A stretch of 63,566 bases of DNA, the filler included, from Folioceros fuciformis (Eukaryota), in assembly GCA_049999805.1 (NCBI GenBank). It is 4 parts of 3 records of this genome, joined end to end, with 100 filler letters (N's around TTAATTAATTAA, not from the genome) between each part and the next. Parts side by side here need not be neighbours in the genome. Positions count along the whole stretch, not along the records: positions 24,101 to 44,289 come from JBNGIO010006337.1; 3 more parts are not named here. The stretch is one strand, 5' to 3'. Below the pieces are notes generated by a model. The model did not search any database. It saw only the letters and a list, made by a program, of their open reading frames with translations, and was not told the DNA's origin. Positions 12,241 through 54,807 of the stretch are shown one piece after another (positions within the stretch are counted from its first letter, which is position 1; each line of letters opens with the position of its first letter). The translations under genes were made by a program, and so were the position numbers.

Positions 12241-12883
12241 ACTCCAGCTCCATAGTGCAGGCGGGACGTGAGACTATGAGAGCAGGAGCTTTTCATCTAA
12301 TTTAGGCGCTTCGTCGTATCATCATTCTCGACTCCTGGCCAATCGCCGTTCTCAAAGGTAACGGGGCGAAGGCAATTCCCATGCCGAAATGCCACAGGGA
12401 GTAGAACTGTGAAAGCGCCTGTTCCTTCGAGAGGCGTGGGCTCCATTTTCCCGCCTTCAGTCATTTAAAATTCTGGTCTGGACGAGTCTTTCTATGATGG
12501 GCCTGCAGTGGAAGGTGATAGGACGCTGTTGTTCGATTTGGCTATTGGGGAGGGGACCTGTTTCGCTAGCGTAACTTATGGGTGTCTTCAAGGATCGGTG
12601 CCTGGAACGTCATGGGTTTCGGACCGCACCTCAGTAGCTCAAATAGCTGGAATTGGCGCTTTGTGATGGCCAAACTCCGGGTGGAAGTCTCTGGCACTCT
12701 GCAGGCTATTGNNNNNNNNNNGATGGCCAAACTCCGGGTGGAAGTCTCTGGCACTCTGCAGGCTATTGAGGCTCCTTTTCGTTGCGGCAGTACTTGTATT
12801 TCCACTCTGTACGCGGAGATTTTGGTGGGTTTTGAACATTTTGAAAGCTGCGCCGTAAGGAGTTGACGAGGAGGCTCTCTACA

Positions 12884-17122: not shown

Positions 17123-18991
17123 ACCCGCCGCACAGGCTAGGCGGAGCCTAGCTCAAGTCACAAGCACAAGAGAAAGCACGCCCGTCCAGGAACTCTCGGC
17201 GACAGAATTGCGCTTCCCACCTCCGCCACCATCCTCCTCTTCCTCATCGCACCACCCAACACAGCTCGCCGCTCATTCCTAAGACCTGACTGCTCCAGCA
17301 TCCAAGGCTCAGCTTCACTGCCCTCTGAAATATCAGCAGCTGCGAAGTGGGGTCCCGGAGAGGAAGAGGGCCTAGCTGCAGGCAACTGCAGGAGGAGCTG
17401 ACAGACAAATGATAGGCAGGCACAGCGAGGAGAGGCTGGAGCACGGGAAATGCATAAGGCAGGCCAGAGCGGCCAGAGAGAGATGGTGGGCAGGGGGAGG
17501 GGCAGGGAAGAGAAATTGCAGTGGCACGACAGAGGCAACACGAGTACAATCAGCACAACATGTAGCCCGGCCGCACTTGAGTGCTGCAGGCCGGCACCCG
17601 TCCCAAGTTGCAACAGCGATCGATCTTGACCCCAGCAAGGCCAAGGCCAATGCCGAGAGAGGCACAGAGGAGAGAGGACCCACGGGAGCCACAAACCAAC
17701 ACTAGGCCAGCATGCAGCTGCCTTTCAACCAACTCTGAGTCCGGTGAAATGGGAACGCCCTCTGAATGTTTGTACGTTACGTCTTCACACCATTTTACAA
17801 GGAGGAGACCGGACTCTCACTGCGCGCCACCGAGACACGCACACATACGGCTCTGTCGAACACCGCTTCCCTTTGGCATTGATCCCTTCCCCCCGACCTT
17901 CTGCGATCTCACTTGACAATGACAAAGTCACATCGACCAATAAATTTTCAACATTATCGATTGCTGCACTCAACAGGCTACTAGACACCGGCTATTGTTG
18001 GATGTCCGGATCGCTTGTCGTAGACGGAGGTAAAAACAGAAAAACTGCAACGAAGGTCCCGGAGTGGAAAATCTGGTGCCTTACACGGCCCTGTCTGTGC
18101 GTTACGGGCCCCGTTGCCCAGCCAACATCCAGGTCCGGGTCGCCCGGACCCACCATCCCCCGTGCAGACCACCTGTGGCTGAGGAAGCTGCTATACGGCG
18201 GGCCCGCCACCCCCATTTACAGGACTCAGAGGATAAACTTGTTAATGCAGCATGTTCCAACGTCTTGTTAGCTGGCGACCGGGCTTGTGACTTATGGCTG
18301 CACCGAGTGTGATTAAGGGGGTAGGTGAGGTACAAGAGCCCCCGCCTCCTCCTCAGGACAACTTTTTGATTAGCGACACGTGAAGCGGTGAAGCCGTGAA
18401 TCCGTGAAGCCCAGTTTTGTCAGGCCCCGGGAAATGGATAATCCAGCCGCAATGCGTATTTGATGTGCCACAGGGTGAAAAGACAGGAGGTCAGATTCCG
18501 AGCTTGACATTTGGGGAAGTGGGCATTCGGGGGAATTGAGCATTCGGGATTGGTCGTTGGGTTGCCTGTCCAGCGTCCAATGTCGGGCAGTGCATGCTGC
18601 TTGAATCGTGACGGGCAGCGGAGGAAGCGGGCGGGTCACAGACGTGCAAGTTGCAACGGCTCGACCGGATTGGGCCGGAATCGCATGAGCTGCGCTGCTT
18701 CCAGCAAAAGATCTTCTGCGTGGCTTCTGTGGTGGAGAAAAGCTTTCTGTTTTTGCACATCGATCTTCCCTGTCAGCCTTGCCCCATATCTTATTATCTT
18801 TTATGTATTTTACTTGATTATAAAGAGACAGAAGAAGAGGAGGAAGAACCAAAGGTGCACTTGTGTTTAAGAATGACTTGCTTCTGGCTATTGATCCAAC
18901 TTTTATAAGATAATACGCGCTGCAGTCGTTGTCTCTACGCCCGGGGCTTGTTCATCGTGCACGTCATTGTGCCAAGTTGTAGCCCGACTGA

Positions 18992-24000: not shown

Positions 24001-24100
24001 NNNNNNNNNNNNNNNNNNNNNNNNNNNNNNNNNNNNNNNNNNNNTTAATTAATTAANNNNNNNNNNNNNNNNNNNNNNNNNNNNNNNNNNNNNNNNNNNN
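24001..24100. other. Artificial contig-join spacer
   Basis: 44 N + TTAATTAATTAA (stops in all six frames, 24045-24056) + 44 N. Confidence 0.97.
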
Positions 24101-25244
24101 TCCTGCAATAATAGCAGGATCCTTTCACTGTACGGCTAGTACTGTCCTTCTTTCTTTCGTCCGTTGACTTGGACTTGTACTCTTCCTTAGGCTTGGACTT
24201 CGCTTTTGCTTTGCCTTTCATGGAGAAGAGAATTGTGTCGTTAGTCTTCGCTTGCTTGGGTGAAATCTCAAACTCCTCCTGCAAAAGCAACCCAACCACC
24301 TCATCCAAGGACGGTGGGTTGTCGCTGATGTCCTGAAAGCCGACACAAAGGGCTTCTAAGTTGATGGTAAGCTACTCAACAGGTGTACGAGGATCCTTTC
24401 GTCAGTTGGTTTGATGTCCATTGCCTTCATTTGGTCCACCAAGGTCTTCGACTTCTGGACATGTCGTTGAATGGTGTTGCCTTTGGCCATCTTGAAGTTC
24501 GCAGGTTCTAGCTCCAACAGCATCGCACTCACCCTACTTCTCTTTTTGTATGTGTTGCAGAGGGTGATCCAAGCTTCTCTCGACGTTGCACACTCGCTCA
24601 ACTGAGAGAGAATGTCGTCTAAGACATTCAACAGGATTTTTGCCAACGCTCATCCATCCTTGTCAAGGTCTATTTCTGTGGGTATATCATCAAGGGCCTT
24701 ATCGATGAATTTCCACACTCCTTTCTCAATGAGAAGCATCTTCATCTTCAACTTCCACAATGTGAAGTTCTTGCCTTCGAACTTCTCCACCACATGAGTT
24801 TCGAGAAAACGTGTCTCCATGCTCGTGTCCTTCGCGGCCAAACAAGATCACGTCCTTGCACCGATAACTATCACCAAGCTCCTCTAACTTGCACAAGCTC
24901 TTACAGACACATAATCTGCGTAGCCCAGTACACAATGCAAAGGAAGCAGAGATAGTCCTACACAAGTCAGTGCCAAGTACTCTACGCATCTGCTGAGTTA
25001 AGGGACTTGGGATTTAGAACATGAGCCCTGATACCATGTTAGAAAAATGATGAATCCCAAGATAAGCCTCAACTCAATACAACTAGATTGATAGTCCTTG
25101 CGTACATATTTAGCCTTCAAGTATGACTATAACTCGATAAAGGGTAAACATTACCTCGATCGTGGTTCTATTGTATATACCTTGGGGTATAATCTCTAGA
25201 CTTTAATGTAGATATGTCGCACAAAACCCCATAGGTTTCTAACA
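24101..25244 (-). mobile_element. Ty1/Copia retrotransposon 5' end (LTR, PBS, decayed gag)
   Basis: 208-bp LTR 25244-25037 with TGTTAGAAA...TTTCTAACA ends; tRNA-iMet PBS TGGTATCAGGGCTC (25036-25023); gag VEKFEGKNFTLWKLKMKMLL, UBN2-type LLSSLP and zinc-knuckle start CYYC, with frameshifts and stops. Confidence 0.92.
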
Positions 25245-25377
25245 CCAATTGCCATGCCCTGCCTTCCAACTATACCTTCCTCGAAGAATCCCGCTAGAAG
25301 CAGGCAAAAGCAGAAGCACGCAATATCCTCCTCCAAAAGCACGCAATATCCTCCTCCAGACTGCACTTGCCCACCAT
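25245..25377 (-). pseudogene. Disrupted secreted-peptide precursor, paralogue 1
   Basis: Removing a 23-bp tandem duplication (25314-25358) restores MVGKCSLEEDIACFCFCLLLAGFFEEGIVGRQGMAI, homologous to the N-terminus at 34194. Cut by the Copia LTR at 25244. Shares the upstream CATCCYAGTTTYGGAG motif. Confidence 0.7.
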
Positions 25378-26329
25378 GGAGTTGCGACCACTCCAAAACT
25401 AGGATGTTTCGCAAGCTTGTTAAAATTAGAAAACAGCCACTTCCTTCTCCCTGGCGAGTGTCCCGAAATATGATATGAGGCCCTGGGTGCTTGCACCTAC
25501 CATGCCAATTCGATTGTTGTTAGTGTGTGTTCAAGGCTAATGGGATCCGACTGTGGACGCTTGCTGCTTGGAACTACTGTGGACTTTTTGGCCACAAGAA
25601 TGATGAGGCTTGGCAGTCATTGACTCATGATATCAAAGGAAATGAGGAGTCAACCTCAGGCAGCGTCTAGTGCTCATGCTCCAGCGAAGGAATCGAAGGC
25701 CACGTCCCATGCACGGGTTTTGGCCCTTCATATCAACAGTCAACAACATTCCTAGACTTCAACAAAAGCCCGATACATGTGGACGGCGCAAGTTGCACCC
25801 CATTGTACCGAATTGAATTCTCCATGCCAATTGATCACGCCGCCGCAGGCAGAGAACCCATTCCGGCCTAAACGCTGTCCTTCCTGGTATCAAAAAGGAC
25901 GGGTAACTTAGTGTCGTCTCTTCAACGTCAACAAGTGGTATCCTTACGTGATAAACGTCCCGTTGAAATTGCCCGCTTAACATTAAGAAATTGATTTTGA
26001 TACGACAGTTCTTTCCACCAAGCCGCACTTCATGGACATCAATTGAAATGCTATTGTTGTGGTGGGCTTGAAGTATCGCAGCCTGCATGTGTCAGAGTAA
26101 AAGAGAGCCTGCGACATGGAGAACGCGGTTTCGTCCCGTGGATGAACCTACCACACCCGAGAACCCCGTTTTGTAGCTATGTTAAGACATGTGGGCAGAG
26201 CTGTCGACTTTTTGTCATTTTGTGGATGCAGCCCCCAATGGGATTCATGGACGCAGTAGGCCGAAGGCCTAAGGCAGCAGTTAGCTGTTTTAGAATTTAT
26301 ACAACACATCTACCTTAGGACTTATTAAG

Positions 26330-29300
26330 ATGCCTTAAACAATTAGGGATAGGGTTCATTGAAGGCTATCTATATGAAGAAGAAGAATATTATCTAAGTC
26401 CACTAAGGATGGATTTTTGTCATGGGACTGAATTGTCAAACATTGAAAAGAAAAGAAACACTTAACAGCTATTCTGAGCGTAATGCATGATCCGTGAGGT
26501 TGAACTGTTGCATATGTCATGCTCTCATCTCCCACATTTGTTTCAAACAAACTCCTGGCAATAATAGGATCCAAAAAACAAAAGAATCCCCTACGTGAAA
26601 ATTTCGCCGCCACAAATAAACATGCAAAATTCTGTCGAATATCCTTATATATGGGACAAAGAACACAAAGGGTTCTTCCGTCTCAACATCCCTGTTGCAA
26701 AATCTGCAAATTCGAGACTTCTTTGGGGGCTTTGGGCGAAGCCATCTATCCGTCTCAACCCTGAGACGATGAGAGCCAACCCGAAAATGACCCATGATCA
26801 TCATGAGGTTAAAAGACACATGGTGCGAAGATAAACAGGAAGGCATGGTTTCCCGGACTTGGAGAGGACACAAAAACATTGTTTGTACGTTTCGAGCGTA
26901 GTAGGTAAAGGGGACAAAGGCAACCAAGTGTATGACAGATAGGTAGTTCGTAGCTCATGGCGAATGGACTTATTGGGGGGGGGTGGAGGGAAGAGGGGGT
27001 GGGCTGGGAGACTCTTGGGACAAAAACCAAGTTTTTGGAGCCAAGAGCAGGATTGAGCATACCAACAAGTTTGGTATCCTGAGAGAGCTAGTTTTCGGGA
27101 GGACTGAAAGGCAAGGAGAAGGTACGAGGGAGAAGAGGTGGGGTTCTCAAACTGGGCATCCTCTAAAGAATAGAGGAGGTATAGGAAGTTGGTTAGGCGG
27201 AACAAACCCTCAAGTTCAAGCGGGAAGGTAGCAAACTTAGCAAGAAGGATGGCCAAGGGGATAGACCTCTTACATGCAATGTGGGGCCGAAGAAAGGATG
27301 TCTGGACTTCCTCCACTTTTGACCAATCATTGAGTGAGAGATAGGGTCCCCAAAACTCCGCTGCATACATTGTTGAAGGAACCACAACTGTGTTAAATAA
27401 CCATTGTTGGGTGGGGATGTCCTTAATGTACATCTGAGAGCATTGTCTCCGCACCCCACATGCCAATGCCACACCCTTCAGAATACGAGCTGAGGTAGAG
27501 AGCTTCCATTGGAGTGTTGGACCATACATAGCGCCACCCAAGTAGACATAAGATCGCACAACCTCCACTAGCTGGCCATTATAGAAGAACTTGAGATTGT
27601 GGTTGATTGGATCCCGCTGATTGAAGAACATTGGTCTTCTTGAGGTTCACTTCCAAATCTCTAGCCTCACAAAAGCATGACAATACCTCTAGTTGCTTTT
27701 GGAGGCCCTCTTGGGAATGAGACAAGAGGGCAATGTCATTTGCATATAGGACAATAGCAATGTATACCAAGGAGAGTAGGCAACCTAGATCCCTAGACTC
27801 TGCAATCCAAGACTCTAATTCATCAATGTAGAGCCCAAATAAGTTAGGAGAAGATGGATCCCCCTGTTGCACTCCCATATTACATAGGAAGTCCAAAAGA
27901 TGAAAGGCAGCATAAGGAGTACAGATTTTGGCCTTAACCTTCTCATATAGAATCCCAATAGCATGTAAAAGATGAGCATGCATCCTCAAGCTCTCGAGGC
28001 GGGCAAAGAGCTTCTCCCAAGAGATAGAGTCAAAGGCGCGCTTGAAGTCAACAAAGCACACATAAACATGTCTATTAACCTTTCGTCTGCTCTTGGCCTC
28101 CTGAATAATAGCAATGAGAGTAAATAGATGGTCCTGTGTATTCCGCTGCGGACGAAAGCCAGCCTAGGCCCTTGCTCTGATGCCAGCATTCTTGGCCCAA
28201 GACGTGGTGAGGATTTCCAAGCACAAGCTAAAAATCTTGGCAAAAATGGACTCCACCATAATATACCGATAGTTGTGGGTCACCTGCCTTGAAGATAGAG
28301 TGGATGTCATTCCAACACCATGCTTTGGGGAATCCATGTACCAGCGCCTCATTAAATAGGGCAGCTAAGGGAGGGACAATAATATTAGGGGATGCATACG
28401 TAAGGAGTTCCCTTGGGATATCTGCAGGGTTAGAGGCTCTCCCAGATCTAAGATTATTGATGGCAGCTAAGACGAGGTCAGGAGTGAAAAGCTTGACCCA
28501 AGGGTCTTGAATCCTAAAAGGAAGGGGAGCAAACTCTCGCAAGAAGAGGGCTTGTACATGATTGATGAGCTTAGGGGACCCTTGTAGTTGGATGGTTTGA
28601 TGAGACTGGAACTGTTTTCAAAAAGTAGCACCCCCAAGAGATTCCTTGAGGAGCTTCAAGAGGCGATCGCGTTGGGAGGAAAAGAAGGCAGACTTTTTGA
28701 TAGCAATAAGGGCTTTATAAGGTTTGACAATTTCCTTGTAGAGTGGGGAGTCGTGGGACTTGGATGGGAAATTGAGGGATCGGAAGTATTTGTGAGTGTG
28801 AAAGCGAAGGCGCTTGCACTCATCATCAAACCAGGGGTGTCGAGGAGCAGCGTTAGATAGCTTGACAGCATGTTAAGGCTTTGGGGGGAAGATCTGGTTT
28901 GTAGCATGGAGCATGGCAGAAGTGAAAGCATTGGCTTGTTGGGGGAACAGAAGGCTAGGAGGGATGGTGGTAATTGACTTTTTCAAAAAGGAGGAGTATT
29001 GGGGAGCTAGGCCATGGTGAAGAGAAGAACGAATTCTAGAAGACTTATGGGATTGAAGCATAGGGTCAAGTTTATCAAAAAGGATATGCCAAGAAAGGAA
29101 GGCATGATTAGACTCAAAAGGCTGGACGTCAGAAATAAAGAATTGACGAACAGAAGAAACAAAGGAGGGTTGCCTAATGACATAGTCAAGGACAGCAGGA
29201 AGTTGACCTGAAGGTGCACAGTGCATAATTCTCTCACTCCCGTGCCTTTGAGGAAGGCCATTGTAGATGAGTAGGCCATGTGACTCCACAAGGTTGAGAA

Positions 29301-30260
29301 GCGCCCTGCCAACGATATTGATTTGGTGTGGATCCTCTGTCCTTCTTTGGAAGCCAAGATCAACTAGATCAAGTGGGAATGTTTGTTATTGATCATTTGG
29401 TGCATAAATAGGGGACTGCTCAGATGAAGTCCACGCATTGAAATCTCCAACCAAAAAGATATCACCTAAAGGCATAAAATGAATCAAGTCATCAGAGAGG
29501 TATTGAAATGTCATAAGAAGCTGGCCTCTAATATAAGGAGAACCTTGAGGTGGAAAATAACAGCAAGCAATGAATAGATGACGGTTAGAAGGAAGAATCG
29601 TTGCAAAAACCTTGATCCACAAAACTCTCGCAAAGGAGTCTTTCTTTGCCACAGTCACAAAACCTGCAGCTTTAGGCCTGTTGGATGAAACATATTCCCT
29701 AAATAAAGAAGAAGAAAGGAAATTGGGAAAAGTGGGAAGGTGTCTAGCCTAGTGCTCATGAGTCTCCATGAGGAAGATCAAGTTGTGGCCCGCTGTAAGG
29801 TGGAGCATCACACTTGGTTGTGCCCATAAAGATCCGTTACAGTTCCAGGATGCCATCCGCAGGATACACCTAGATTGGGCCTTGCGGGCTGCAAGTTCTC
29901 ATAGGGGCTTAGGTCCTTCTTGAACTTGATCATCCACCTTAATGATCAAGCAATCCCCATGAAGGACAAGCCTCCCTGAAGGTAGGCATTTGAGCTTGCT
30001 TGGTCTTCACTTGCAACTTGGTTAAATCATCAATAATAATAATAATATTTTGGCCCCGAAAGTTAGTACGAGCTTTTAACACCTGAAGCCTATCTTGAGC
30101 AGAGTGAAAACGAATTAGAAAAACCAAGCGGCGGTCTGGATCCTTCCCAACCAACCAAGCATTTTGAAAAGAAACCCCAGGGACATGAAGCTTTGTGGCA
30201 AGGAAGTCAGATACAACCTGTCGTAGATTTCATGAACCTTGCAAACCTATTATCTAAAGG
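26330..30260 (-). mobile_element. Decayed LINE (non-LTR retrotransposon): ORF1 end, APE endonuclease, RT, C-terminal Cys motif
   Basis: Fragments IASWNCNG, LVGDFNA, CFVDFKRAFDSI, GVQQGDPSSPNLF, LYANDIAL, RVGSHRLRVET...CRFC; many stops and frameshifts; ends approximate. Confidence 0.92.
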
Positions 30261-31323
30261 AGCGCCTCAAGTTGCATTGACTCTATCAAAAGGTTACTTT
30301 ATGGATGCGTACCCTACCCTATAGTTGGCTACAGTATGGACGCGTAGACTACCTTACAGTTGCAATGAGAACGGCACTTGGGATTTTGCCGGTGCCCCCG
30401 TTTAGGATTTTCTTGGTGCGAGGTGTGCGTCCGTCAATGTGTGGCATACGAAGCGTGGTGTGGCAGACGAAGCGTGGTCTGTTGAATGTGAGCCCTTTGG
30501 GGATTATGATAAGCTGCAGGTTCTGAAACGAGCCGCTTGGCTATGAAGAGGAATAATGCTCCGCCTGCAGGGCCGTAACAGAATTGAATGCTTCACATCA
30601 GCAATGTGGAGTTCGTCTTTTGGAGTTTTGATCAGCTGAGTGCCGAACCGTTGCAGGAGGCCAGTGCTGTTCAAGCTTCACACGTCCCCGACCTGAATGA
30701 CATGTAAAGCAGGTAATGAGGATTCCGTCTTGTGCGATAATGCACGTCTCTGGGTTGCGATGTAAGTGTGACAGCCTTTGGAATCCGGACGGCGTCTTGG
30801 TACACACATTGGAAGATATTTCAGGGTCTGACGATTCTGGTTCACATCAGAACACTGACCTGATCAGGTGCACAATGTCTGCATCTTTGGCCTACTCTCC
30901 TACTCCCAATCCAATTCAATCTATTCGTGATCTCACGCCGAACACCTACTACTTCGTTGCTGACAAAGAATGTGTCACCTACAAAAGAATGGCATTGCAT
31001 GCATATGCAGTGTAGGCCGTGTCGATTTATTCGGAATCATGAGAAGATGCGACTAAGGGTAAAGCTGCGCATGTCCCAGCAATGTCATGGTCGTATTGCA
31101 GCAACAGACGCGTGGGAGCTTGGGAGCTGATCGTTAGTCTGGCCAGCGCTGCCGACCTGCACACTCCATTCGCGACGTCGTGGACGCAGTGGGTGCCTGC
31201 ATATGACAATTAATTGGACGCTGACATGCCACAGGCATGCATGTCCGCATCTGCAGTTGGCAAATGCAGTGTACAACGTTGGAGAAATGGGATGCTCAGG
31301 CATCCGATGGCTGCAGATGATCA

Positions 31324-31656
31324 TCAGGTCAGGGACCTTGGCAAGTCCAGGGCACGGTAGCTTGGCGGCAAGGACTCGGGATGGTGGGTGGAGGCGGTGA
31401 CGGAGTTCGAGGCTTCTCGAAGTAGCGGGCAGGCTGCTTCCCGTACGAGTCCGTCTACGAGCAGCGCCCTGATGTTGCTCCACCGAATGGCGTGAGGTGC
31501 ATCGGGTATGACATCAGGCCCTTTCCACTTCGTCAAGGACACACTGGCGTTCCTCCCTGGACCTGCCGTGCCTCTCCCGGCGATCCCCTGCTGCCAAAAC
31601 CCCGCCAGCAGCAGGCAGAGCAGAAGCGCGCATGCTTTCCTGCTCTTGCTCGTCAT
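31324..31656 (-). pseudogene. Secreted-peptide precursor, paralogue 2 (frameshifted near 31440)
   Basis: Signal MTSKSRKACALLLCLLLAGFWQQGIAGR. The alternative frame gives KQPARYFEKPRTPSPPPPTIPSPCRQATVPWTCQGP* (stop 31331-31329), matching paralogue 3. Could be an assembly indel. Confidence 0.7.
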
Positions 31657-31937
31657 CGTCTTCGAAGTGTACAAACGACAATCTGCACCACTCCGAAACT
31701 AGGATGGTTTGCAAGCCGGTGAAACTGTCCCGTTGAGCTGGTACACTGCCACTTCTTCCCAGCGTCCCGAGGGAGAAGCACTAAGGCTGTTGGCAGTTGC
31801 GTTGTCGATCCGAATGTTGTGTGTGTGGAAGTGGTATTGGATCCCGGCGGACGCTTGCAAGCTTGCTTTCTTACCATGTGGAACAATGCACAGCTGTTGG
31901 TGATGAGACTGGGCCGGGGGATCCGAATTACTCATTT

Positions 31938-32509
31938 TGTAGGAACCCGAGGGGCCAGTCTCAGCAGCGTCTAATGGTCGCCTTGAACTAGGCGAGTCAA
32001 CCTGCGTATGACGAAGGCCGGTCAGGTCCGGTCAAGAGGTCCTTGCCCTCGACGCGGTTGGGTCAGGTCGACAACCTGTTTCAATCCGCCAACTTCTCCT
32101 TACAAACAGAAGGGTTTAGAAGGCCTTCAGGACCATCTGCCCCTCGGCGAAAATTCGTATCTGGACTTAATTCTCCTCTGGCCAGGAAAGCAAAGTGACC
32201 TGGGCCTGCTGACCCTGGGGTGCAGTAAGAGACTTCAGTTTAGGAACAGGTGGGACAAACCATATGCAAGTGACAAGGGGGACTAAACCCCTTCCCTCGA
32301 TGTGCCACAAAGAGACCAACTGTCACGACTTCCTCGAGGTCCGACCTAGAGGAGAGCCTTGTACAATTCGTCCTCCACGACAACCAACCCCGTCGACATG
32401 TCACGGACCCAGCCCACTTGTACTACTATATTTATTATACGTGTCGTGCCGCCAGGGGTTACATACGACTCTCGTCCTTCACACACGCGAATGCTGTACG
32501 AACTTACCA
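31938..32509 (-). mobile_element. Probable solo LTR related to the 19773-19959 LTR
   Basis: Minus strand begins TGGTAAGTTCG...GCGTGTGTG (cf. TGGTAAGGTCCG...ACGTGTGTG) and ends TTCCTACA. No clean target-site duplication seen. Confidence 0.45.
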
Positions 32510-33744
32510 TGAACTGTCTCTGTAGTGATTAGGATAATTTTCAGTGTCTAATATTGTTGACGTGTATGATGATGCAATCAGTGTCACTGTTTTACAACTG
32601 CACCTCAGGCTGGATGAAGTGCTAATAGGAAACCAAATTAAAAGTAAGGACGGCATTGGTTTCGCATAGCACCACTTGTCATGGCAGTGCTCATTCCGGG
32701 CTCATTCGTCCTCCGACAGGCACCTTGCGGGAATTGACGCCCGATCCTTCGAACGTTGCACCAGTCCTGCTTCCATGGAGACTCAAACGTATGCATGGTC
32801 GCTGGGGAGTTTCCCCACACCAGTCGGCGTATTCAGAGCAGGTACTGTGCTGAGTGACCAATACACCGTGGGCATTTTTGGAAGGAGATTAGCAGCTACA
32901 AGTTGAAAGGGAATTAGAACCGGCGCCTAGCCTGCAGGGGCGTATCACAGCTGAATGCTGAAAAGATCATGCAAAATTAGGCCAGCCCTGTAGAGCAGCC
33001 GAGGGGAATTCGAAGCCGGTGAACCCCCAAATTGCAAGGAGGCTGTTGAAGCGCTCACGCCATCTAGCCAACTGTCAGTCTGCTGTCGGAATGGCGACAG
33101 GTGATAACCGTGGTGTGGATTTTATATCCCTGGGATGGGATGACATTGTGTGATCGGAGGGATTGTTGCACACTGAAAATGTTACAGGAAGGCAATAGTA
33201 TGCACATGGATTGGAAATATATTATCTGGACGCGCGGCGTTGGTGGTGTACACTGAAAGATTTTCGCCGCTCGGTTTGGAGATGGTGCTACAGGTTCATA
33301 ACATGAGGACCATTGTGCCCTGGTAGCAAGCTAAGTGCACAATGTGTGGACTCGGCAAAGAATGATCCTACTCTTACGCTGACCGTGACAATGTGTCACC
33401 TACAAAAGAATGCATGCATGCATGGGTGCAACTGGGTACTGAACTCAACAATCTTGGGCGGTAGCGCTAGCACTTGCAGCCGGGTTGTCCACACAAGAGC
33501 TCGCAATTGTTGCAATGCCCAAGATTGATGCGCCATGCATGTATGTGAGGCAGGTCGGAGACGACGATTCAAAGATGGACGGACGCTGTTGCTGCAACGA
33601 TATTGCATATATGGCCGCACTGCAGGAGACGAGTGGGAGATCCTAATCGGGAGCTGACCACACCACTGTTCCCCATTGCTGCGTCAAGCTACCCTGACGC
33701 TCATCACCTGCATGCAGCGGCACACGGATCATGGATGCAAATGA

Positions 33745-34194
33745 TCAGCAAGTCCCGGGAGTGGTAGTCGGGATGCAGGTAGCCGGGCGGCTGGGAGGAG
33801 GTGGCGGCGGAGTGACAGTCTTCTTTGAGTATCGGGCAGGCTGCGTGGCTGCTCCCCCGTTGCGTCCGTGGACGTTCACCACCAGCTGCGCGACGTTGGT
33901 CCAGGGCATGGAAGGGGGCACCTCGGGTCGTTTCCACGTCCTTACGGAAATCAGATTAGACACGTCTGGGACGACCGAGTCGGGGCCCCTGGTCGGCGTC
34001 CGTGGTTGAGCGGCATGACGTGGGTCCCCGACCGGAGCCACGACCGAGGGCTGGGGCTGCGGATCCTTCGCTGTAGCAGCCAGCATATGCATGCCCCGCC
34101 TTGCAGCCATCCCCTGGTCGCAGAAGGCCGCCAGGAGCAGGCAGAGCAGAAGTGTACGGACGCAATTATTTCGTCCACTGCACTTGCCCGCCAT
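33745..34194 (-). CDS. Secreted-peptide precursor, paralogue 3 (intact, 149 aa), Pro-rich two-Cys C-terminal peptide
   Basis: Signal MAGKCSGRNNCVRTLLLCLLLAAFCDQGMAAR; C-terminus QPARYSKKTVTPPPPPPSRPATCIPTTTPGTC*; supported by homology with the two neighbouring copies. Confidence 0.78.
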   Translation of the reverse strand: MAGKCSGRNNCVRTLLLCLLLAAFCDQGMAARRGMHMLAATAKDPQPQPSVVAPVGDPRHAAQPRTPTRGPDSVVPDVSNLISVRTWKRPEVPPSMPWTNVAQLVVNVHGRNGGAATQPARYSKKTVTPPPPPPSRPATCIPTTTPGTC

Positions 34195-36807
34195 GGTTTC
34201 AGATTCGTAAATCCCGGAATTCCGCCGACTCCGAAACTGGGATGTTGATCTGCAATTAAGCACGGTTGCAGAAGAAAAGGACAGGAAGGCTACAGCAATT
34301 CCTGCTAGCCTCCTTGGTTAGGACCTACCGAGTCCTCGAGATATCCCACCAGTCCAATGCAGCGCGGTGGCAGCTACGGTGTGAAATCGGTTGCAGGTTG
34401 TGTGTTGCGTGCAGGTCGTGCACGTCGAATTCCAACCCGAATTCCGGATACCACTACTCCCCGACTCCCGCTCCGTTGCTGGCTGTGTGGCAGGCTGCTT
34501 GGACGCTGCTTTGCAGTAGTGTGCACGCAGGCGGTTGAGAATGGAGGAATGCCCCTGGCATGCCCCGTTATAAAGGCCAGCACAAAGTCAGATCCAAGAG
34601 CGTCTTAGCCCAGCGAACATGACGAGTGAGGTAGACGAAGTGCGCGGTCCCGGGCAGGTCGTAGTCCGGTCCGGTCAGGAGGCTCCCCCGTTGCCTGGCA
34701 TCCGCGTCAGAGTCCAGTCCGTAGACAAACTACGGCCACCCAGTGGTTTAAGTAGAGTACTCCCTAAGCTACGCCATGGCATGCCATGGTCCCCGCGACT
34801 TCCTTGCTACTCACGTCCATTATCTTAGTATGGTTGCATGATGCATGCTGGTACATGGTGGGCAGGTAATATGTCAAAATGAGCTCCGCAGACTGCATAT
34901 GGCATCGGTGTGCGACGTCCTTAGGCCCAGGACTTGAGCGCGGAGCAGACAGGACACTGGACGACAGCAGCACCTGCGGGCGACTTGGACGTGCCACGCT
35001 GATTCCCCGTTCGGACACCCGAGGTGGTCCGGTCCAGCTCCCTCTCGGGTTCCGCCTCCGGCTCCCTCTCCAGCTCCAGCTCGGGCTGACTCGTCGCAAT
35101 GCCCGCAGAAGCGACGCGGAAGGAACCCTAAGGAAGCTCACACCGGGATTCTGCTCTTCCCGTGTTCAACAGGTCAAAGGCCTGCGGCAGCCCCTAGTCC
35201 CAGAGTCCCATCCCAGCCCGGCCTATGCCTTGCTTGGCACCGTATGCAGTCCGTGTGTGTATGTTTGTCCGTGTACATATAGTATCGAGTGCGGTGACGT
35301 TGTCTCTAAGTATATGTACAAATGGACCGTGGTTTGTTGGTTCGAGGCAGGGCGGGAGGAATCTGGTGGGAAAATGGGGAAAGCGAGTGCGAGGGTCAAC
35401 TGGCGGTTTCACGTTCACCAGGCCCCGGCTGGAGTGTGGGGGGCCGGTGGCAGGCCTGGCCAAGCATGGCCAGGCCAGGCCAGGGCCCCTGCCCCCATGG
35501 CCCCCCTGGTCATGAGCAAGCAAGCGGTGTGACCGGGCCGTGGAGTGGCGTTGACTGGGCGAAAGGCGATTTGTAAAATGCCAATTGCGAATCGCCAATG
35601 ATGACTTATGCTGCATGCGGAGGAGGGGCAGCCAGCCATGGCCCACGAGGCAGCAACATCATCATCGTCATCATCATCATCGGCATGCACGGTGCACAGT
35701 GGCCAGGAGTCTATAGAACAGAGGCCAAAGGAAGAAGCAACATCGCCCCGTGGCCCACACACATCAATCATCATGCACCATGGCATGCCTGCCTGTTGAA
35801 TATCGTTATGGCCGTCGACATATGTGGGACATGTACTGTATCCAGTGTATGTCTTGCATTGTATTGTATTGTATTATAGTTAGAATATGTGTAAGGATGA
35901 GGGAGGGGAGGGGCCCGCCGCCTGGACAGAACTGGGCCCAGGTCGCCAGGCCTGGAGCGCGCGCCATGGGCGGGGCACAATGGCATGGCTTGCGGGACCG
36001 GGCCCAGACGAGGACGGGGATGCGTGTTGCTGGGGAGTCGAGACGAGACAAAAACGAGACGAGTTGAGTCGAGACGCCACTATACGAGACGAGGCCACGA
36101 GAAGAGAAGAAAAAAGAAGAGAAACCAGGCAAGGCAAGCCAAGCCAAGCCAAGCCAAGCCCAGGGAAAGGAAGGAGCGGCAGGCGGCACGGGAGCGGAGG
36201 GCAGCGCAACGGAGTGGAACGGAAGCATCGACCTGCTTCCACCACTTCTTCCAAATTTATAAACAAGTTGATGAAGGTGGAGCGTGATGAAGAGAGGGCG
36301 CGATCGCGCATTAAGTCAGCCCCAGCCTCAGCCACGTTTGAGCACGTTGCCGCCCGATGCTTGCTGCCACAGGTAGCGATGTCAGCAGCCGCACTGAGGC
36401 TCGCCTGCGCTCTCTCCAAATCTCCGCCGCTCCCACCACCTCTGAGTTCTGCACCAACAAGCCCCTCACCTGTAGAGCAACGTCTCTGTGAGCTGCCTCC
36501 CCTGTACCCCACGCACCCTCGCCTCCTCGCTGCTCTGCCCTCTTAGTACCACTCACATTGTGCTGTGCTGTGCTGTGTCTCCCTCTGCCCCCGCATCCCC
36601 GCATCGCTGTCACTGTCTCTCCAGGAGCCTTTGTCTCTGTCTCTGCTGATGTGCGTGTGAGTGAGTGTGGGTGTGCGAGTGTGTGTGTTTTGTAAGCGCG
36701 GCGATCTTGCCTTGCTGGGTGTGGCCCTGATGCTGTGCACTGTCTAAGCCACACTGTCCTCCCCGCTTGCACCAGCTGCACTACTAGTGTGTCAGGTCTC
36801 AAGTGTG

Positions 36808-37281
36808 ATGGCAGCCCTCGTTCGTCTCCTCCTCCTCCTGGTGCTAGCACCAGCGGCGTGGCTGCTTGCGGGGCCGGCCATGCTGCCTGCTGCGGCGGGG
36901 AGGCCCGGGCCCAAGCTGCTGGTGGAGGTGGCAGCTGGCGATGGGGCGAGAGATGCCCCTGTGGTTGTGGGAGAGCGGGATCCTGTGCCGGTGAAGCAGA
37001 CCGGGGGGTACACGCTGTCCAGGGCCCCGCGCCTTCCCCCGTCCGGACCCTCGCCTATCCACAACGATGTTGGGCCGGCCGGGTTTGTGGTGCGCCGGAT
37101 CACAGCTCAGATCACTGCCGACGGCGCCGGTTTGGAGGTCAGCAGGGTACCGGTGGAGGGGAATGGAGCCAGGACCGAGACGGCGGCGGCCGATCACAAG
37201 GATCACGGCCTACCTTCGTCCCAAAGCCAGATACCAAGCAACCTGGATCGCCAGCAACAGGACGCTCGCAATAGCATATAG
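36808..37281 (+). CDS. IDA/IDL-like (CLE-resembling) signalling-peptide precursor, 157 aa
   Basis: Signal MAALVRLLLLLVLAPAAWLLAG...AAAGRP; motif GYTLSRAPRLPPSGPSPIHNDVG aligns without gaps to the IDA extended PIP motif (FGYLPKGVPIPPSAPSKRHN). Dodecapeptide at 37030-37065. Confidence 0.78.
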   Translation: MAALVRLLLLLVLAPAAWLLAGPAMLPAAAGRPGPKLLVEVAAGDGARDAPVVVGERDPVPVKQTGGYTLSRAPRLPPSGPSPIHNDVGPAGFVVRRITAQITADGAGLEVSRVPVEGNGARTETAAADHKDHGLPSSQSQIPSNLDRQQQDARNSI

Positions 37282-39486
37282 GCTCCAGGATTGTAGACGT
37301 AGACGTGGTGTCACACATGGCTAGCGCAGGTGGATGCAACTGCAAACTGCCTTTGCATCTGCAGCTGGCCCTGCTTTCACATTATTTCCTCCCTCAGTCA
37401 AACATTGCTCACGCCGGGGCTAGCTCAGCACTGGCACTGAGCTTTGGATGGTGGAAGCAGGCGCAGGGGCAGGTGCACAGACACATGCAGCTGCAAGACT
37501 TCATGCAATTCCTTCCCGGAATTCGGTTGCCAAGGTGGTCGGGAGATTGCAATTGGATTTACCAACCTGCGCAATCTCCCGAATTGTCTGTACAGTTGGA
37601 CACACAGGCTAGGCTACAATTATTATAGCGGTTGGAGCAAATTGGCTGCGCACAACGACGCCTTAGATTGTCAGGAGAGCCCAAGCCATACTAGCAGCTG
37701 CAGGCCATTTCCTCTCAATTTACCTTGTACAGTACACAAGGCTCAGGCAACCCCTGGCATGCGCATCCGCCCTGAATCATTGGTAGAGCTATTGGAAACC
37801 CAGAAAAGCCAAAAAAGACAAGTTAGTCTTCACGATTTTGCCGTATGTCGTATGTATTGATTGAGGCTAAAGGACTCCAGTTCCAGCTAGCAGTTTTAAG
37901 ACTATAGAGAGACCTTTGATTGACTTTGTTATGTGATCATGACTTGTCTCAACGTCATGACAAGCCAGTGACTTGTTGGCTGGCAGGCTAGCTAGGTGAC
38001 TAGCCGGCCAGCCACATTCTCAGTATATCAGTGCAATAAAAAGTGTGGTTGGAGGCCCCGCCATGTGTGTGTCCCTTCCCTGCCCCCTCAACCTTACATG
38101 TCACACCACCGATATCGGTTGTGGAAGATCAGACCTATGGAAAGCACGAAATTGTCGAAGGCATGAGACTGCGCACCAGGAACATCTGTAGACTACTACC
38201 TCCAGGCTTCTTACTGTAGTTGGAAATTCATTCCAGGTATATATCTTCCTTCATTTCATTCCCCTCATCACAAAACACACTCTCATTGGCAGTGGCAATG
38301 ATACGTGCAGTGCAATGCAAGCGATGGCGGAGTATTTTATTGGGTGACATGCAGTGCAGGACAATTGTTTAGCTATAAATGGTTTAATATATTCGCACGC
38401 GCAAATGGCTCCTTTCACCATGCTGTTTTATTCTCATCAGCAGGTGCCACCTGTTGGTATCAATCCCAACAGTCACAGTGCGTGCGATGTATCTCATCTC
38501 CAACTTGTCACCACTGTCAAATAGTTGCTGATACAGTAACAGTGTGATTGTGTGCCTGTCTGGACAGTAGCATGTGTGTGTTCTGAAAGTTGTAACGCCG
38601 CAACGGGACCTGGACCGGGACCGGCCGGCCCGGAAGCAGGTCCACAGTCACACTCTTCAGCACTGTAGGTATGTATGTTTGTAGCACTGGAAGTGCGGCA
38701 GTCACTGCAGACTGCAGACCTGCACTCTACAGTCGCCAGACGCAGCCGGTGGAGCACAGACAGCGGCGTTGCAGTTGCAGGCCTACATTACTATTGTGGG
38801 CACTTCAGGCCCGCTCTATACTATTGCAGGCCTTGTACAAAACAGTAAAGGCCATGTCAGGCCTGGCCCGGCCACTCCAGGCCGGCCAGCCGCTGCGAGC
38901 CTCGGGAATGCCGACCGGCAGCTCCAATATCGCCTGGCCCTGCTCTCCGCTGACGGATTCATAAATGACGAATTTATTTCTTTCAACACGGACTCGGATC
39001 AGCATTCACTCCTCCCCCATCCCCGCGTTCGATGTGCGATGCTTACGCGGCTCGAGTGCACAAATGATGAGGGAGCATGTACTGCACGTATGCACACATC
39101 TATGTCCAAGCTACGCCGGCTTGCCGCCGGAGCTTGAGCATCGAGATTTGCTTCCGGTCAGAATTCCCGGCAGGAATAATCGCCCGCCATTAACGACAAC
39201 GAACCTCCTGCGGTCACGTGACTGGCTCGTCAAATTCAAAAGTTCTATCCGATACCGATCATCGACCCATCGTCCCAAGATCCGATTCCGACTGCCATCT
39301 CCACCGGCCTGGTAAGCGGGCGGGGATTAGCGAAAGGTGGCAACACGTTTAGCTCGCTGTGGGTGGAGATGGAATCCCGAGCCCCCGGCCCGCAGGCTGC
39401 ACGCTCCACAAAGCAACGCACCGCATGCAGCGCATCAAAAGGCCCAGCCAAAGTATGGGCGCGGCATATGTTGGGAGGTGAACCTC

Positions 39487-44389: not shown

Positions 44390-44483
44390 GCCCAGCTAGG
44401 AGGCGGTGGGAGAGTTAGCAAGATCTAGGATAAGCAGCAAATGAACCTGCCAGATACATAAAGGCATCACACACAGCCCAGAG

Positions 44484-44570
44484 ATGGTCGCCTACAAAGG
44501 GGCTTTTATGCCGTCGCTGCCGCCTGTGCAGCAGCAGCAGCAGCAGCAGCAGCAGTATTTCTACTACCAG

Positions 44571-44605
<35 letters not shown>

Positions 44606-47600
44606 CCAGCAGCAGCAGCACCAGCAGTGCTCGGGGGCGGCTGATCGAGCCGGGGACTCGGCTCTGCGGGCCGGCCCGTCCAGCAATGGCCAGGCCGTGG
44701 CGCAAGAGGATGTGGCCGTCGACCTCTCCGAAGTCTACTTCTTGGTTATGCATTTTCTGTCCAATGGCCCCTGCCAGAAGGCCTTCGCCGTGCTGTGGAA
44801 CGAGTTGCTGCAACACAAGCTCCTGCCTCGCCGATACCATGCGCTTTATTCTAAGCTCGGGGGATCCGTCACCCAGGATGAAAACGACGACGGCATGTCA
44901 TATCCGCTTAATTACTCGGCCCTGGCGCAGAGGTTTGTACGGCTCTTTGCCCGCGTCGGATTGGGCGACTTAGATCCGCTCCGGGGCCGGCCCTGACACT
45001 GTGCATCCGTGCTTGCTGTTTTTTTACATCATCAGTTTAGTAGTCCGCCATGCGTCCAGTCCGTTCTGCTGTCCTCCGTCTAAACCTACGCTGTTGTGGA
45101 ACCTTTGCAGAAACCCCCACATCGACAAAGATCACCTTGTTAAGCTGCTGCAGCAACTGCTGGTCAATAATGCCAGAACAGCCGTGGGTTTGGAGCAGTC
45201 TCCATCGAGGATTCCCCTTGCTGCTAATGTTCCCACCTTGATCGGCTCCGGTTCGTTCTCGCTTCTTGATTGTAAGTCACGCTTCCCACCTCTGGATATG
45301 GATTGGATGCCGTAAAACGAGTCTTCAGTTTTGGGGCTTTAGGGCTTGATGCTACAGCTTGTGTACGCCTTTCATTCTCTCTCTCGCTTGATGGGAGGAT
45401 AGCTATTGTTTGTGTGTCCTGTACTTTTCTGTCTCGTTGACAAATTTTTTTTTTTTTTTTTTTCCCTTCGGGTTTTGGGGGGTGGTGTTGTTTCCCCGTA
45501 TCCATTCGTCCTGCACAGCGGAACGGAGCAAGCTCCCTGTTCGGGCACCCAGATGGATGACTCAGTCCCAATGGCCCCGCACAAACTGCAATCAAGTGCA
45601 TGGCTTGATGCTCAGGGAGATCAGCGGTGGATTTTCTGGGAGCCGCCGGTCCCCGTCATCCACGAACTACACGTTGCTGGACCCTCCCATGTTGATAAAC
45701 AGAATTACAGCACAGAAGACTCTTAGAGGGCATCGTAATGCGGTTTACTGTGGTACGTTTCTTCTTCATTTCTGATTAATGACGTGTGTCGTCACCTCTG
45801 GTACATAGCGGCTTTGATAGGGACTGCACGTTGCTTAACACTGCTTTGTCTGATAACTCTACGTTTGGTTGTCTGCCGTTTCAGCCATCTTCGATAGGAA
45901 AGGACAACTAGTGATAACTGGATCGGACGATCGTCTTGTGAAAATATGGTCGGCAGTTTCTGGCCTTTGCCTGCGAGGTTGCCGGGGCCATGAGGTACCC
46001 CTCGCGGGACATGCGTCCTTTTGCTCGCTGCGAAGTTAAGTATTGGCATTGTATTTGGCTGCTGGTAGGGCATTGCTCATACCTGTTTTTCACTGTTGAC
46101 AGGGTGACATCACTGACCTTGCTGTGAGTTGCTGCAACACGAAAGTGGCATCAGGCTCAAATGACTGCACAATACGAGTGGTAGGGCATCTTTGTTTTCA
46201 CGCTAGGTAGTTTCACCCCCAGAAGAAGATGCCTGACTGTGTGGAAGCAGCTGAATGTTTTCGGCAGCCACAAAGCTCATGTGCCCGCTTGACTCATGGT
46301 TTGCCGTGGCTTTTTACTCAACAGTGGCGTCTCCCGGATGGATACCCCGTTTGTGTGCTTCGCGGTCATCAGAAGCCTGTGACACAGATTCAATTCAGCC
46401 CACAGCAAAAGAACCATCTGCTCTCGTCAGTGTTCTCCGATACTCTTCAGTCCCTCAGTCTTCATGCCCAATTCATGATTGTGTTGGAGGAAAGATGTGC
46501 CAGGATCCAACTTTGCATGAAACTTGCTCGCCAGGTCATCTGAGGAGGGAACCTGTCGTATTTGGAATGTGGCTACAACGGTTTCGCGCCAGTATGTCCC
46601 TCGTCCTGACAAAGATGCCGGTATGTCCAGCCCAAAGGGTCAATGCTAATTGCCCGGCCATTTGTTATTTCTGCTTATCATTGTGCAACGCGTGACAAGC
46701 AACCGCTTTTCAGGTGTGAAGATGATTAGCACACCCCCTGCCGGTGCTCCGGTCTCAAACCAAATTGTGTGCTGTGCCTTCAACGGAGATGGAACACTTT
46801 TTGTCACTGGAGGCTCTGATAAGTGTGCAAGGGTGAGTATATCACAGCTCCAGTACGCGATTGTTGTGGTTCGGTGGTGTTTCTGCAGTCCCTTGACCTA
46901 TTAGGGTTGGATTGAGACTGATATCCTCGAGGGTTTTTTGCAGGTATGGGAAGCACCAACGGTGGCCTTTTTCCAGGCAGACAACAGCGTGTTCCATGAG
47001 CTGGACAGGCTTGACGGTCATGCGAACGAAGTGAACTATGTGCAGTTCAGGTGAGGGATCTGGGTATGGCAGCTCATGCCTTTTTGAATGATGTTGCGAC
47101 TTTTGTAGTGGCATCAATTCAGCAGGCTTTCCTGAGGCTGCGATTGACTCTGTTTATCTGTTGCAATTATGAAGCGGGTGTGCTGCTGTTGGAAAGACGC
47201 TCACAGCCATCAATTTGAAGGACGTCAAAGGAGTACAGGATTGCTGGTTTGCTGCCATATCTCTTGACCGTCCATTCAGAATTCCGCTTGTAAACCTTTT
47301 TGTGGCAAGGAGGCTAACATGATTGCATTTGGCCTTTGTAAAGGTTTACTGATGCCATAGTTACATGCTCACGAGATGGTAGTGCAATAATCTGGACTCC
47401 TCGTCGTCGTAGGCAAGTGGTGAGTGTGTATGTGTTGCATTTTTGTCGTGAGGGAGACATTTGTCATACAAGTTCAGAGGATTGTTCTGCATTTATATAA
47501 TGATATATGTTATCATCCCTGCAGATGAAAGATAAGAAAAAGCCCAGGGAAAGAAAGGATGTGAAGCTTTGGAAGAAGACTTATCATTTGAGAGTTCCAA

Positions 47601-54308: not shown

Positions 54309-54807
54309 TGCAAGAGACCACCTGCCTTGCCTTCAACGCGAAATGGGCTTGAGTTTCGCACCACACCTTGACGAGCCAGCAGGATGGCTGATTTAGACTC
54401 CCTCATGCTTACAGCTGAGTGAAAGGAATCCGGAAACCCTGTACAGGTGGACTCTTTCCCACCATGCACGTCGGGCCACGGTGGACCAGTCCCGTTGCAC
54501 GGGTCCCCGTTCATACTGTATGGTTCTTGGCTTCATTTGCAATGCCCCTGATGACCCTCGGATCCTGGATCATGCCAAGAATCAGCCAAGTCTCTTCCAT
54601 TCCCGCTTGTTTGAGAACACACAACACAAAGTTGGAGAACTTCCAACACGGTACTGTACCTGAAGGTGAGTCCGCTTAACGTACAGATTGCTGTATCAAG
54701 ACGCATGTCCACATTGTGCCATAGAAGCATCTTTCACCTAGCTAAACTAAGCAACGTCTTCTCCAATAAAGACGCAACATTATGTGAAAAATCAAGCACC
54801 ACGGGAG

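Follow-up and report, generated by a model that had tools for sequence, protein, structure and literature searches.

Does a short interval of the hornwort Folioceros fuciformis genome (assembly GCA_049999805.1), in which an IDA-like precursor lies beside three small secreted-protein genes, preserve an old linkage between two kinds of peptide ligand, or has it simply brought together neighbours of different origin? The first-pass annotation favoured the former, describing the three minus-strand genes as CTNIP/SCREW-like paralogues and suggesting that the cluster could record an ancestral peptide locus or an undescribed ligand system. The window analysed here, 63,566 nt including filler, joins four parts of three genomic records, and the features in Table 1 lie on the part taken from JBNGIO010006337.1 (window positions 24,101 to 44,289). 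The four start codons are as claimed: three are on the minus strand, at 25377, 31656 and 34194, and the fourth, at 36808, is on the plus strand. The reading that we consider most probable, at roughly 0.7, is that of two unrelated neighbours, namely a hornwort IDA orthologue (gene D) and the remains of an old orphan tandem array (copies A, B and C).

Table 1 Features of the locus, with positions counted along the window.
Feature	Position	Strand	Description
Gene D, hornwort IDA orthologue (assigned from sequence)	36808..37281	+	Precursor ORF of 157 aa; N-terminal segment hydrophobic and signal-like
Predicted mature 12-mer RLPPSGPSPIHN	37030..37065	+	Residues 75-86 of gene D
Gene C, sole intact copy of the orphan family	33745..34194	-	149 aa
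Middle block of C, WKRPEVPPSMPWTNVAQLVV	33877..33936	-	In frame with B; loosely recalls the IDA/CTNIP core
Conserved ~35-nt island	33390..33423	-	Twin at 30969-31004; blastn B/C collinear block 3, E = 8e-7
Copy B	31324..31656	-	110-aa ORF; homologous signal peptide; middle block 31456-31527
Copy A, 5' remnant	25294..25377	-	ATG and signal-peptide-like start; stop after 27 codons
Copia-type element truncating copy A	24356..25244	-	gag at 24356-24820
Remnant of a non-LTR retrotransposon, lying between A and B	26801..29385	-	RVT_1 domain

An IDA orthologue in Folioceros

Gene D is, as judged from its sequence, an orthologue of the IDA gene already described for Anthoceros, and is not new. Its N terminus, MAALVRLLLLLVLAPAAWLLAGPAML, is charged and then hydrophobic, which is the layout expected of a secretion signal, and its predicted 12-mer has the central Pro, the Ser-Gly/Ala-Pro-Ser core and, at the C terminus, the His-Asn of IDA/IDL peptides. 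Across all six frames of the window, a loose IDA/CLE-type pattern matches here and nowhere else, with 0.005 matches expected (mean over 200 local-composition shuffles). The Anthoceros gene is named 'Anag IDA' and 'Anpu IDA' in the consulted part of Furumizu et al. 2021 (Plant Cell, PMC8462819), where the sheet 'Suppl. for Fig. 8' gives the sequences used for comparison (AagrOXF_evm.model.utg000103l.110.1 for A. agrestis and Apun_evm.model.utg000023l.712.1 for A. punctatus). Identity of gene D to these precursors is ~87-89%, counted by hand over residues 1-101 and not computed by a tool (~90/101 identical positions for A. agrestis and ~88/101 for A. punctatus). The signal peptides match, as does the 14-residue stretch DVGPAGF[VM]VRRITA that follows His-Asn, whereas gene D is variable at residues 42-50 and its tail has diverged beyond RRITA. 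This near-identity identifies the window as hornwort DNA and the gene as one already described, while the differences point to a related but distinct hornwort of Anthoceros type. The IDA-like precursor that had been proposed at 36808 is borne out by both its motif and its published relatives.

The assignment to IDA draws on the published hornwort precursors together with the 12-mer of the liverwort orthologue. The Anthoceros peptide, RKPPSGPSPIHN, agrees with that of gene D at 11 of its 12 positions, the exception being position 2, which is Leu in gene D and Lys in both published species (PMC8462819, consulted in part). MpIDA1 of Marchantia polymorpha (Mp7g02930), EVPPQGPSPIHN, matches at 9/12 positions, with PP-x-GPSPIHN as the common core. 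In Marchantia and Selaginella no residue follows His-Asn in the ORF, whereas gene D continues for 71 residues, an extension that is common to both published hornwort orthologues, so that a C-terminal cut would be needed. By our own count from Table 1 of PMC8462819, the 12-mer is equally close to CLV3 and to Arabidopsis IDA (7/12 identical residues in each case), and what supports the IDA label is therefore the published assignment together with the residues at positions 3 and 8. In the CLE 12-mer pattern of the same table, position 3 is Val and position 8 is Asp or Asn; gene D has Pro3 and Ser8, which are the IDA states, and does not fit the CLE pattern.

Pfam assigned no family to gene D, and a homologue search of the protein collections returned 901 word-sharing candidates, none of them at E <= 10. 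As this blank was obtained despite the published orthologues, small ORFs of hornworts, IDA included, are evidently missing from the protein collections.

By analogy with Arabidopsis IDA, the precursor would be secreted and trimmed to a 12-mer whose last two residues are His-Asn and whose central Pro is probably hydroxylated, and the peptide may then be perceived by a hornwort HSL-clade LRR-XI receptor kinase together with a SERK co-receptor. Gene D adds one more hornwort orthologue; the presence of IDA in bryophytes was published in 2021, so little changes.

A probable decaying trio of small secreted-protein genes

Copies A, B and C are probably a decaying trio of small secreted-protein genes that is unrelated to gene D. 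The proposal of three homologous signal-peptide genes stood as regards homology, which is evident from the shared blocks, but not as regards three equivalent genes, as only C is intact. The copies have a 5' leader and a signal-peptide block in common, and the ATG and hydrophobic core are kept in 3/3. Between B and C, blastn detects three collinear blocks, comprising the island listed in Table 1 and two others at E = 8e-7, one at 34106-34152/31580-31626 (83%) and one at 33748-33844/31341-31437 (71%); between A and B the 5' leader is matched (25387-25424/31687-31724, 84%). The island and its twin are 94% identical over 36 aligned columns, contain CATGCATG and lie ~320 nt 3' of the stop codons of C and B, respectively, and the exact 22-mer occurs only at these two sites, against 0 expected. 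Across the remainder of the ~2.5-kb unit, blastn of B against C gives no match at E <= 1e-3, which suggests an old duplication in which these blocks seem to have been retained. At the protein level, BLASTP of B against C gives E = 0.002 with the middle block matched. Six short strings from B and C that were sought in the supplement of Furumizu et al. 2021 do not occur there.

The blocks differ in how their substitutions are distributed. In the signal-peptide block, 6/8 differences between B and C fall at the third codon position (our own binomial estimate, ~0.02), whereas in the C-terminal block, read in the frame of C, they are spread 11/8/9 over the three positions and purifying selection on the Cys tail is not evident. 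The signal-peptide and C-terminal blocks are 143 nt apart in B and 262 nt apart in C. These distances differ by 119 nt, which is not divisible by three, so that the ATG frame of B reads the C-terminal block (31341-31437) differently from C and the Cys pair is lost from the product of B. When the window is searched with C by tblastn, the tail is recovered at 31341-31436 (56% over 32 aa, E = 3e-8), but the signal peptide of B is read in another frame.

Gene C thus remains the only copy in which a single frame covers both the signal peptide and the tail with its two Cys. A signal-peptide-like N terminus is followed by a disordered, Pro-rich body and by a tail, ...TPPPPPPSRPATCIPTTTPGTC, with Cys140 and Cys149. 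In a single-sequence AlphaFold2 model (mean pLDDT 57.4) only residues 8-30 and 98-112 are helical, and the protein is predicted to be disordered apart from the signal helix. The body contains TPPPPPPS, and PSPPPPT occurs in the shifted frame of B. Such Pro runs are typically targets of prolyl hydroxylation. The resemblance to hydroxyproline-rich secreted peptides and extensin-like motifs is compositional, however, as C has one short run and neither repeats nor a Pfam match. Our best guess is that C would be secreted as a peptide or protein rich in hydroxyproline, and that Cys140 and Cys149 would close a short disulfide loop at its C terminus.

Searches for relatives of this family came back essentially blank. 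Pfam gave no family for B or C, and a phmmer search with C of 1.84 billion representatives yielded two matches at E <= 0.001, both of which were rejected as relatives, being repetitive and unrelated proteins of 1019-1027 aa. The one match in a PDB sequence search with C (E = 1.1) was judged to be chance; in the ESM Atlas the best score for whole C, 0.82, is within the range that shuffled sequences reach, and residues 80-149 gave no usable match. None of four exact sequences (C, B, D and a 718-aa neighbouring ORF) is present in the protein collection and, since that collection lacks hornwort IDA, the blank results for C say little about hornworts. Rfam gave no match over the window at gathering thresholds. 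GC content by codon position does not clearly separate C from neighbouring chance ORFs; the stretch is GC-rich and long chance ORFs are common in it, as exemplified by stop-to-stop frames of 220 aa and 247 aa at 34870-37054.

Comparison with CTNIP/SCREW peptides

The CTNIP/SCREW-like label that had been given to the trio is not supported. In the part consulted of Rhodes et al. 2022 (Supplementary file 10, PMC9191895), the family core is ...PVPPSG-xNG-C-T-N-I-P-G...P-C. CTNIP4 depends on Cys58 and Cys68 for both binding and activity according to the consulted sections of PMC13585564, where CTNIP and IDA peptides are also said to have N-terminal and core regions in common; Pro62 is reported to be highly conserved. 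Like CTNIP4/SCREW2 and its family, the orphan genes are small secreted tandem precursors (149 aa in C and 110 aa in B, both below 150 aa and with hydrophobic N termini) in which a Pro-Pro-Ser stretch accompanies a T/S-N-I/V triplet. The core region of C reads VPPSMPWTNVA, in which VPPS is followed by W-T-N-V, and that of B reads VIPDAPHAIRWSNIR, with W-S-N-I, a pattern that recalls the CTNIP core; C also has a pair of Cys, 9 residues apart, at its C terminus.

The positions that define the family argue against membership. At the place of the required first Cys, both B and C have Trp, with no second Cys within 11 residues, and the sole Cys pair of C lies ~40 residues downstream of the CTNIP position and is out of frame in B. 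Pro62 is replaced by Ala in C and by Arg in B, the spacing departs from that of the CTNIP core by -2 in C and by +2 in B, and VPPS has become VIPD in B. Neither B nor C is matched by a CTNIP-core pattern, C[TSG][NYW][IVT]P, whereas a generic 'PP...C(7-10)C' pattern has 24 matches in the six frames of the window. No CTNIP was among the matches to C in the exhaustive phmmer search, a weak test in that short peptides are hard to detect; many CTNIPs are, moreover, reported to be unannotated. The portions of the literature consulted contain no report of CTNIP/SCREW outside the angiosperms, and the sections consulted of PMC8462819 report the HSL3 subclade for angiosperms and three HSL-clade genes, undifferentiated in Anthoceros, for A. 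agrestis. With no similarity detectable, present sequence comparisons do not demonstrate that the orphan family belongs to CTNIP/SCREW. The suggested ancestral peptide locus has as its sole basis a loose VPPS...TN[VI] resemblance that is not retained in paralogue B.

Origin of the cluster

The start codons of C and D are 2.6 kb apart in divergent orientation, so a divergent fourth precursor near the trio is real; what did not hold is the linkage of both peptide types, the neighbour of gene D being one intact orphan secreted-protein gene. We propose that A, B and C represent an old tandem array, lying upstream of D and divergent from it, that would have encoded a lineage-restricted, small, secreted, disordered and proline-rich protein. 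The array would since have decayed, leaving C intact, B frame-shifted in its tail and A truncated by a Copia insertion and altered by a 23-nt duplication.

It could instead be argued that the three copies are non-coding, as duplicated non-coding or transposon-derived remnants that are open by chance in GC-rich DNA. The lack of homologues in Pfam, PDB, the ESM Atlas and phmmer is consistent with this, as are the tail block without third-position excess, the frame-shifted and broken states of B and A and the chance ORFs of more than 200 codons that lie nearby. We nevertheless regard it as unlikely, given that a start codon and hydrophobic signal-like core persist in every copy, that the signal-peptide block has its third-position bias, that the leader directly 5' of the ATG is conserved and that Pfam detects no transposon domain within the unit.

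Small secreted-peptide genes commonly expand in tandem, and C and D are adjacent; a further idea is that B and C are highly diverged tandem derivatives of the IDA gene, a hornwort-specific IDA/CLE-type offshoot that has shed the His-Asn end. PPSMP in C stands at the place of PPSGP in D, and tblastn without composition correction aligns residues 15-97 of C with 9-81 of D at 32.5% identity. The E value of that alignment is, however, 0.09 within the 63-kb search, composition-adjusted BLASTP of C against D gives E = 0.5, blastn shows no DNA similarity between the two loci, and PPSxP, which is absent from B, would arise by chance about once in 20 at the proline content of C (a rough estimate). We consider such a derivation improbable. 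Slightly further down the scale is a variant in which B and C would form a hornwort-specific, disulfide-tailed IDA/CTNIP-type offshoot, born in tandem beside IDA and serving as the ligand of one Anthoceros HSL-clade receptor; were this long shot true, the angiosperm split between linear and cyclic ligands (IDA versus CTNIP) would have an independent or older bryophyte counterpart. Least credible of all, in view of the substituted Cys and Pro positions, is the reading in which the trio is truly homologous to CTNIP/SCREW and forms part of an ancient IDA and CTNIP ligand cluster predating the seed plants.

On present evidence, the orphan family is an annotation candidate, with one intact lineage-restricted gene and two decayed copies, and not evidence of an ancestral IDA and CTNIP locus. 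It would matter only if it proved to be expressed, to be kept in further hornworts and to bind an HSL-clade receptor, in which case it would bear on the diversification of LRR-XI ligands before the seed plants.

Transposable elements around copy A

The 23-nt tandem duplication in copy A occupies 25313-25358, with units starting at 25358 and 25335, and A ceases to resemble B and C near 25245, at the start of the Copia-type element. The gag region of this element is matched by PF14223 (E = 8e-10) and PF13961 (E = 2e-6). A putative LTR start, TGTTAG, at 25244 and a primer-binding-site-like sequence, TGGTATCAGGGC, at 25025-25036 were placed by eye and give the element's presumptive limits; blastn found no second LTR. 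The non-LTR remnant between A and B has its RVT_1 domain (PF00078, E = 4e-21) at 27579-28163.

A hornwort IDA gene

The IDA-like gene proposed in the first-pass annotation (gene D) is real, carrying a motif unique in the window within a precursor near-identical to published Anthoceros IDA. A loose IDA/CLE-type pattern matches once across the six frames of the window, against a mean of 0.005 matches in the shuffled window (n=200, local composition retained). The predicted mature peptide, a 12-mer, agrees at 11/12 residues with that of Anthoceros IDA, RKPPSGPSPIHN (Furumizu et al. 2021, PMC8462819), at 9/12 with the reported C-terminal end of MpIDA1 from Marchantia, EVPPQGPSPIHN, and at 7/12 with Arabidopsis IDA, given as PIPPSAPSKRHN. 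The score against CLV3 is likewise 7/12, equal to that of Arabidopsis IDA; what places the gene in IDA is Pro3 and Ser8, together with the classification already published.

Compared with the hornwort IDA sequences in the sheet 'Suppl. for Fig. 8' of the supplement to Furumizu et al. 2021, gene D is near-identical to those of Anthoceros agrestis (90/101 positions over residues 1-101, counted by hand) and A. punctatus (88/101, likewise) and an exact match to neither, with the differences concentrated at residues 42-50. This comparison places the window in the hornworts, as sequence from a relative of these two. Conservation with these sequences also covers DVGPAGFVVRRITA, the 14 residues that follow the His-Asn, beyond which the 71-residue tail of gene D is unconserved. 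Whereas the Marchantia and Selaginella ORFs, as published, end at the His-Asn, that of hornwort gene D runs on into this tail, and hornwort IDA precursors therefore require an additional C-terminal cut. The IDA-like gene is thus correct, yet already in print for Anthoceros, where IDA is described as found using the query PIPxSxPSKRHN (Furumizu et al. 2021).

Downstream of the gene D stop, a frame at 37441-37700 (+) reads ...GREIAIGFTNLRNLPNC...RLGYNYYSGWSKLAAHN; it resembles exon 2 of the published A. punctatus IDA model and is unlike the single-exon A. agrestis model. Either this is a conserved 3' UTR or the exon of the A. punctatus model is doubtful.

One intact orphan gene and two decayed copies

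Of the three paralogues proposed beside gene D, all minus-strand genes for small secreted proteins, copy C stands as an intact orphan gene, while copy B is a frame-shifted copy and copy A a remnant. A blastn search of 24001-38500 against the whole window (E <= 1e-3) returned three B/C blocks and one A/B block (Table) and no similarity beyond them. Since the remainder of the ~2.5-kb repeat unit has no match at this threshold, the B/C duplication appears to be old and the shared islands to have been retained. An ATG and hydrophobic core are present in all three copies, with LLLCLLLA in B and C. Third codon positions take 6 of the 8 differences in the B/C signal-peptide block (~0.02 by our own binomial estimate), which is some evidence that this frame was translated. 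A middle block is also common, in the same frame, to C (WKRPEVPPSMPWTNVAQLVV) and B (WKGPDVIPDAPHAIRWSNIRALLV; BLASTP E = 0.002).

The interval from the signal-peptide block to the C-terminal block is 143 nt in B versus 262 nt in C, a 119-nt difference that shifts the frame of B. The ORF of B itself, of 110 aa, ends in an unrelated tail containing one Cys; to read the tail homologous to that of C, QPARYFEKPRTPSPPPPTIPSPCRQATVPWTCQGP, a different frame is needed, which has a stop just upstream. A 17-nt surplus past this tail restores the frame, so that the second TGA of B aligns with the stop of C. Differences in the tail block fall 11/8/9 by codon position in the frame of C, and as the count gave no third-position excess in any frame, constraint on the Cys tail is unsupported.

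In copy A, 23 nt are duplicated in tandem (units at 25358 and 25335), which leads to a stop after 27 codons, and the resemblance of this copy to B and C is lost near 25245. At this break lies a sequence starting TGTTAG, followed by the primer-binding-site-like TGGTATCAGGGC (25025-25036) and a Copia gag. The LTR limits, which we read by eye, are putative, and a second LTR for this element was not found. Much of the A-B gap is occupied by a non-LTR retrotransposon.

The ~35-nt island 3' of the B and C stops, much better conserved than the coding blocks, holds CATGCATG, then TTCTTTTGTAGGTGACACAT; an element of the 3' UTR, a regulatory element and a splice acceptor are all candidate roles for it.

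Relation to CTNIP/SCREW and to IDA

The likeness to CTNIP/SCREW that had been noticed probably stems from VPPS...WTNV of copy C and WSNI of copy B. The CTNIP core is given as ...SLQ[KR]G-PVPPSG-xNG-C-T-N-I-P-G...P-C (Rhodes et al. 2022, Supplementary file 10, PMC9191895), Ser53 and Pro62 are reported to be highly conserved, and the Cys58-Cys68 disulfide of CTNIP4 is described as needed for binding and activity (PMC13585564). In contrast to CTNIPs, C and B have Trp in place of the first core Cys and lack, after it, the second Cys that closes the loop. In place of Pro62, C has Ala and B has Arg; B reads VIPD instead of VPPS, and the spacing is off by -2 for C and by +2 for B. A search with the CTNIP-core pattern matched neither B nor C. 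A CTNIP-like identity of the three copies fails on those defining features that can be tested. The C-terminal Cys pair of C is unspecific as a signal, as a generic pattern of PP followed by two Cys 8-11 apart has 24 matches in the six frames of the window. CTNIPs are reported from Amborella through eudicots and monocots, and the literature searched yielded no report of CTNIP/SCREW outside angiosperms.

Searches of Pfam, PDB and Atlas returned nothing for copy C, and phmmer against 1.84 billion representatives gave two matches at E <= 0.001, the protein collections searched being without hornwort IDA and the four looked-up window ORFs. These two phmmer matches are a repeat protein of bacterial type and an artefact of repeats.

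Descent of the orphan family from IDA is also unsupported, as BLASTP of copy C against gene D is non-significant (E = 0.5). That the family is a hornwort-specific ligand related to IDA/CTNIP we regard as very improbable. The AlphaFold2 model of copy C alone (mean pLDDT 57.4; only a signal helix at 8-30 and a weak helix at 98-112) would fit a disordered secreted precursor and proves nothing. By GC at each codon position, copy C is inseparable from the chance ORFs of the GC-rich 34.8-37.1 kb, where many are long. Frames of ~220 codons on both strands at 34870-36546, and one of 247 codons, stop to stop, antisense to the 5' half of gene D (36311-37054, -), illustrate how easily long ORFs arise there.

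Other contents of the window

Table. Features located in the window
Feature	Position	Strand	Remarks
Copia gag	24356-24820		
A/B leader immediately 5' of ATG	25387-25424 / 31687-31724	-	84% (blastn)
Non-LTR reverse transcriptase	27579-28163		
B/C island ~320 nt 3' of both stops	30969-31004 / 33390-33423	-	94% (blastn)
B/C C-terminal block	31341-31437 / 33748-33844	-	71% (blastn)
B/C signal-peptide block	31580-31626 / 34106-34152	-	83% (blastn)
Copy C	33745-34194	-	Intact, 149 aa, C-terminal end ...QPARYSKKTVTPPPPPPSRPATCIPTTTPGTC
Gene D	36808-37281	+	157-aa ORF; charged-then-hydrophobic N-terminal segment
Gene D 12-mer, RLPPSGPSPIHN	37030-37065	+	Residues 75-86
BRWD-type protein exon(s)	44445-52768		
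Methionine sulfoxide reductase exon(s)	53745-54332	-	
TCP-1/cpn60 chaperonin exon(s)	57746-58696		
Copia retrotransposon	61697-63566		

The 63.6-kb window is nuclear DNA of the plant; Rfam at gathering thresholds gave no match across it. One 731-codon open frame at 12845-15040 (+), with weak matches to Dynamin_N (E = 2e-7) and GTPase (E = 1e-5), is probably a single-exon GTPase gene. A 429-codon open frame at 15863-17152 (-), rich in His, Gln and Gly-His repeats (HGHGHG..., QQHQEYQQHQ...), has no Pfam match. The N runs at ~12.8, 20.9, 24.0 and 60.9 kb have identical sequence on either flank, one 15-residue translation being found on both sides of that at ~12.8 kb, and look like scaffold gaps joining overlapping contig ends.
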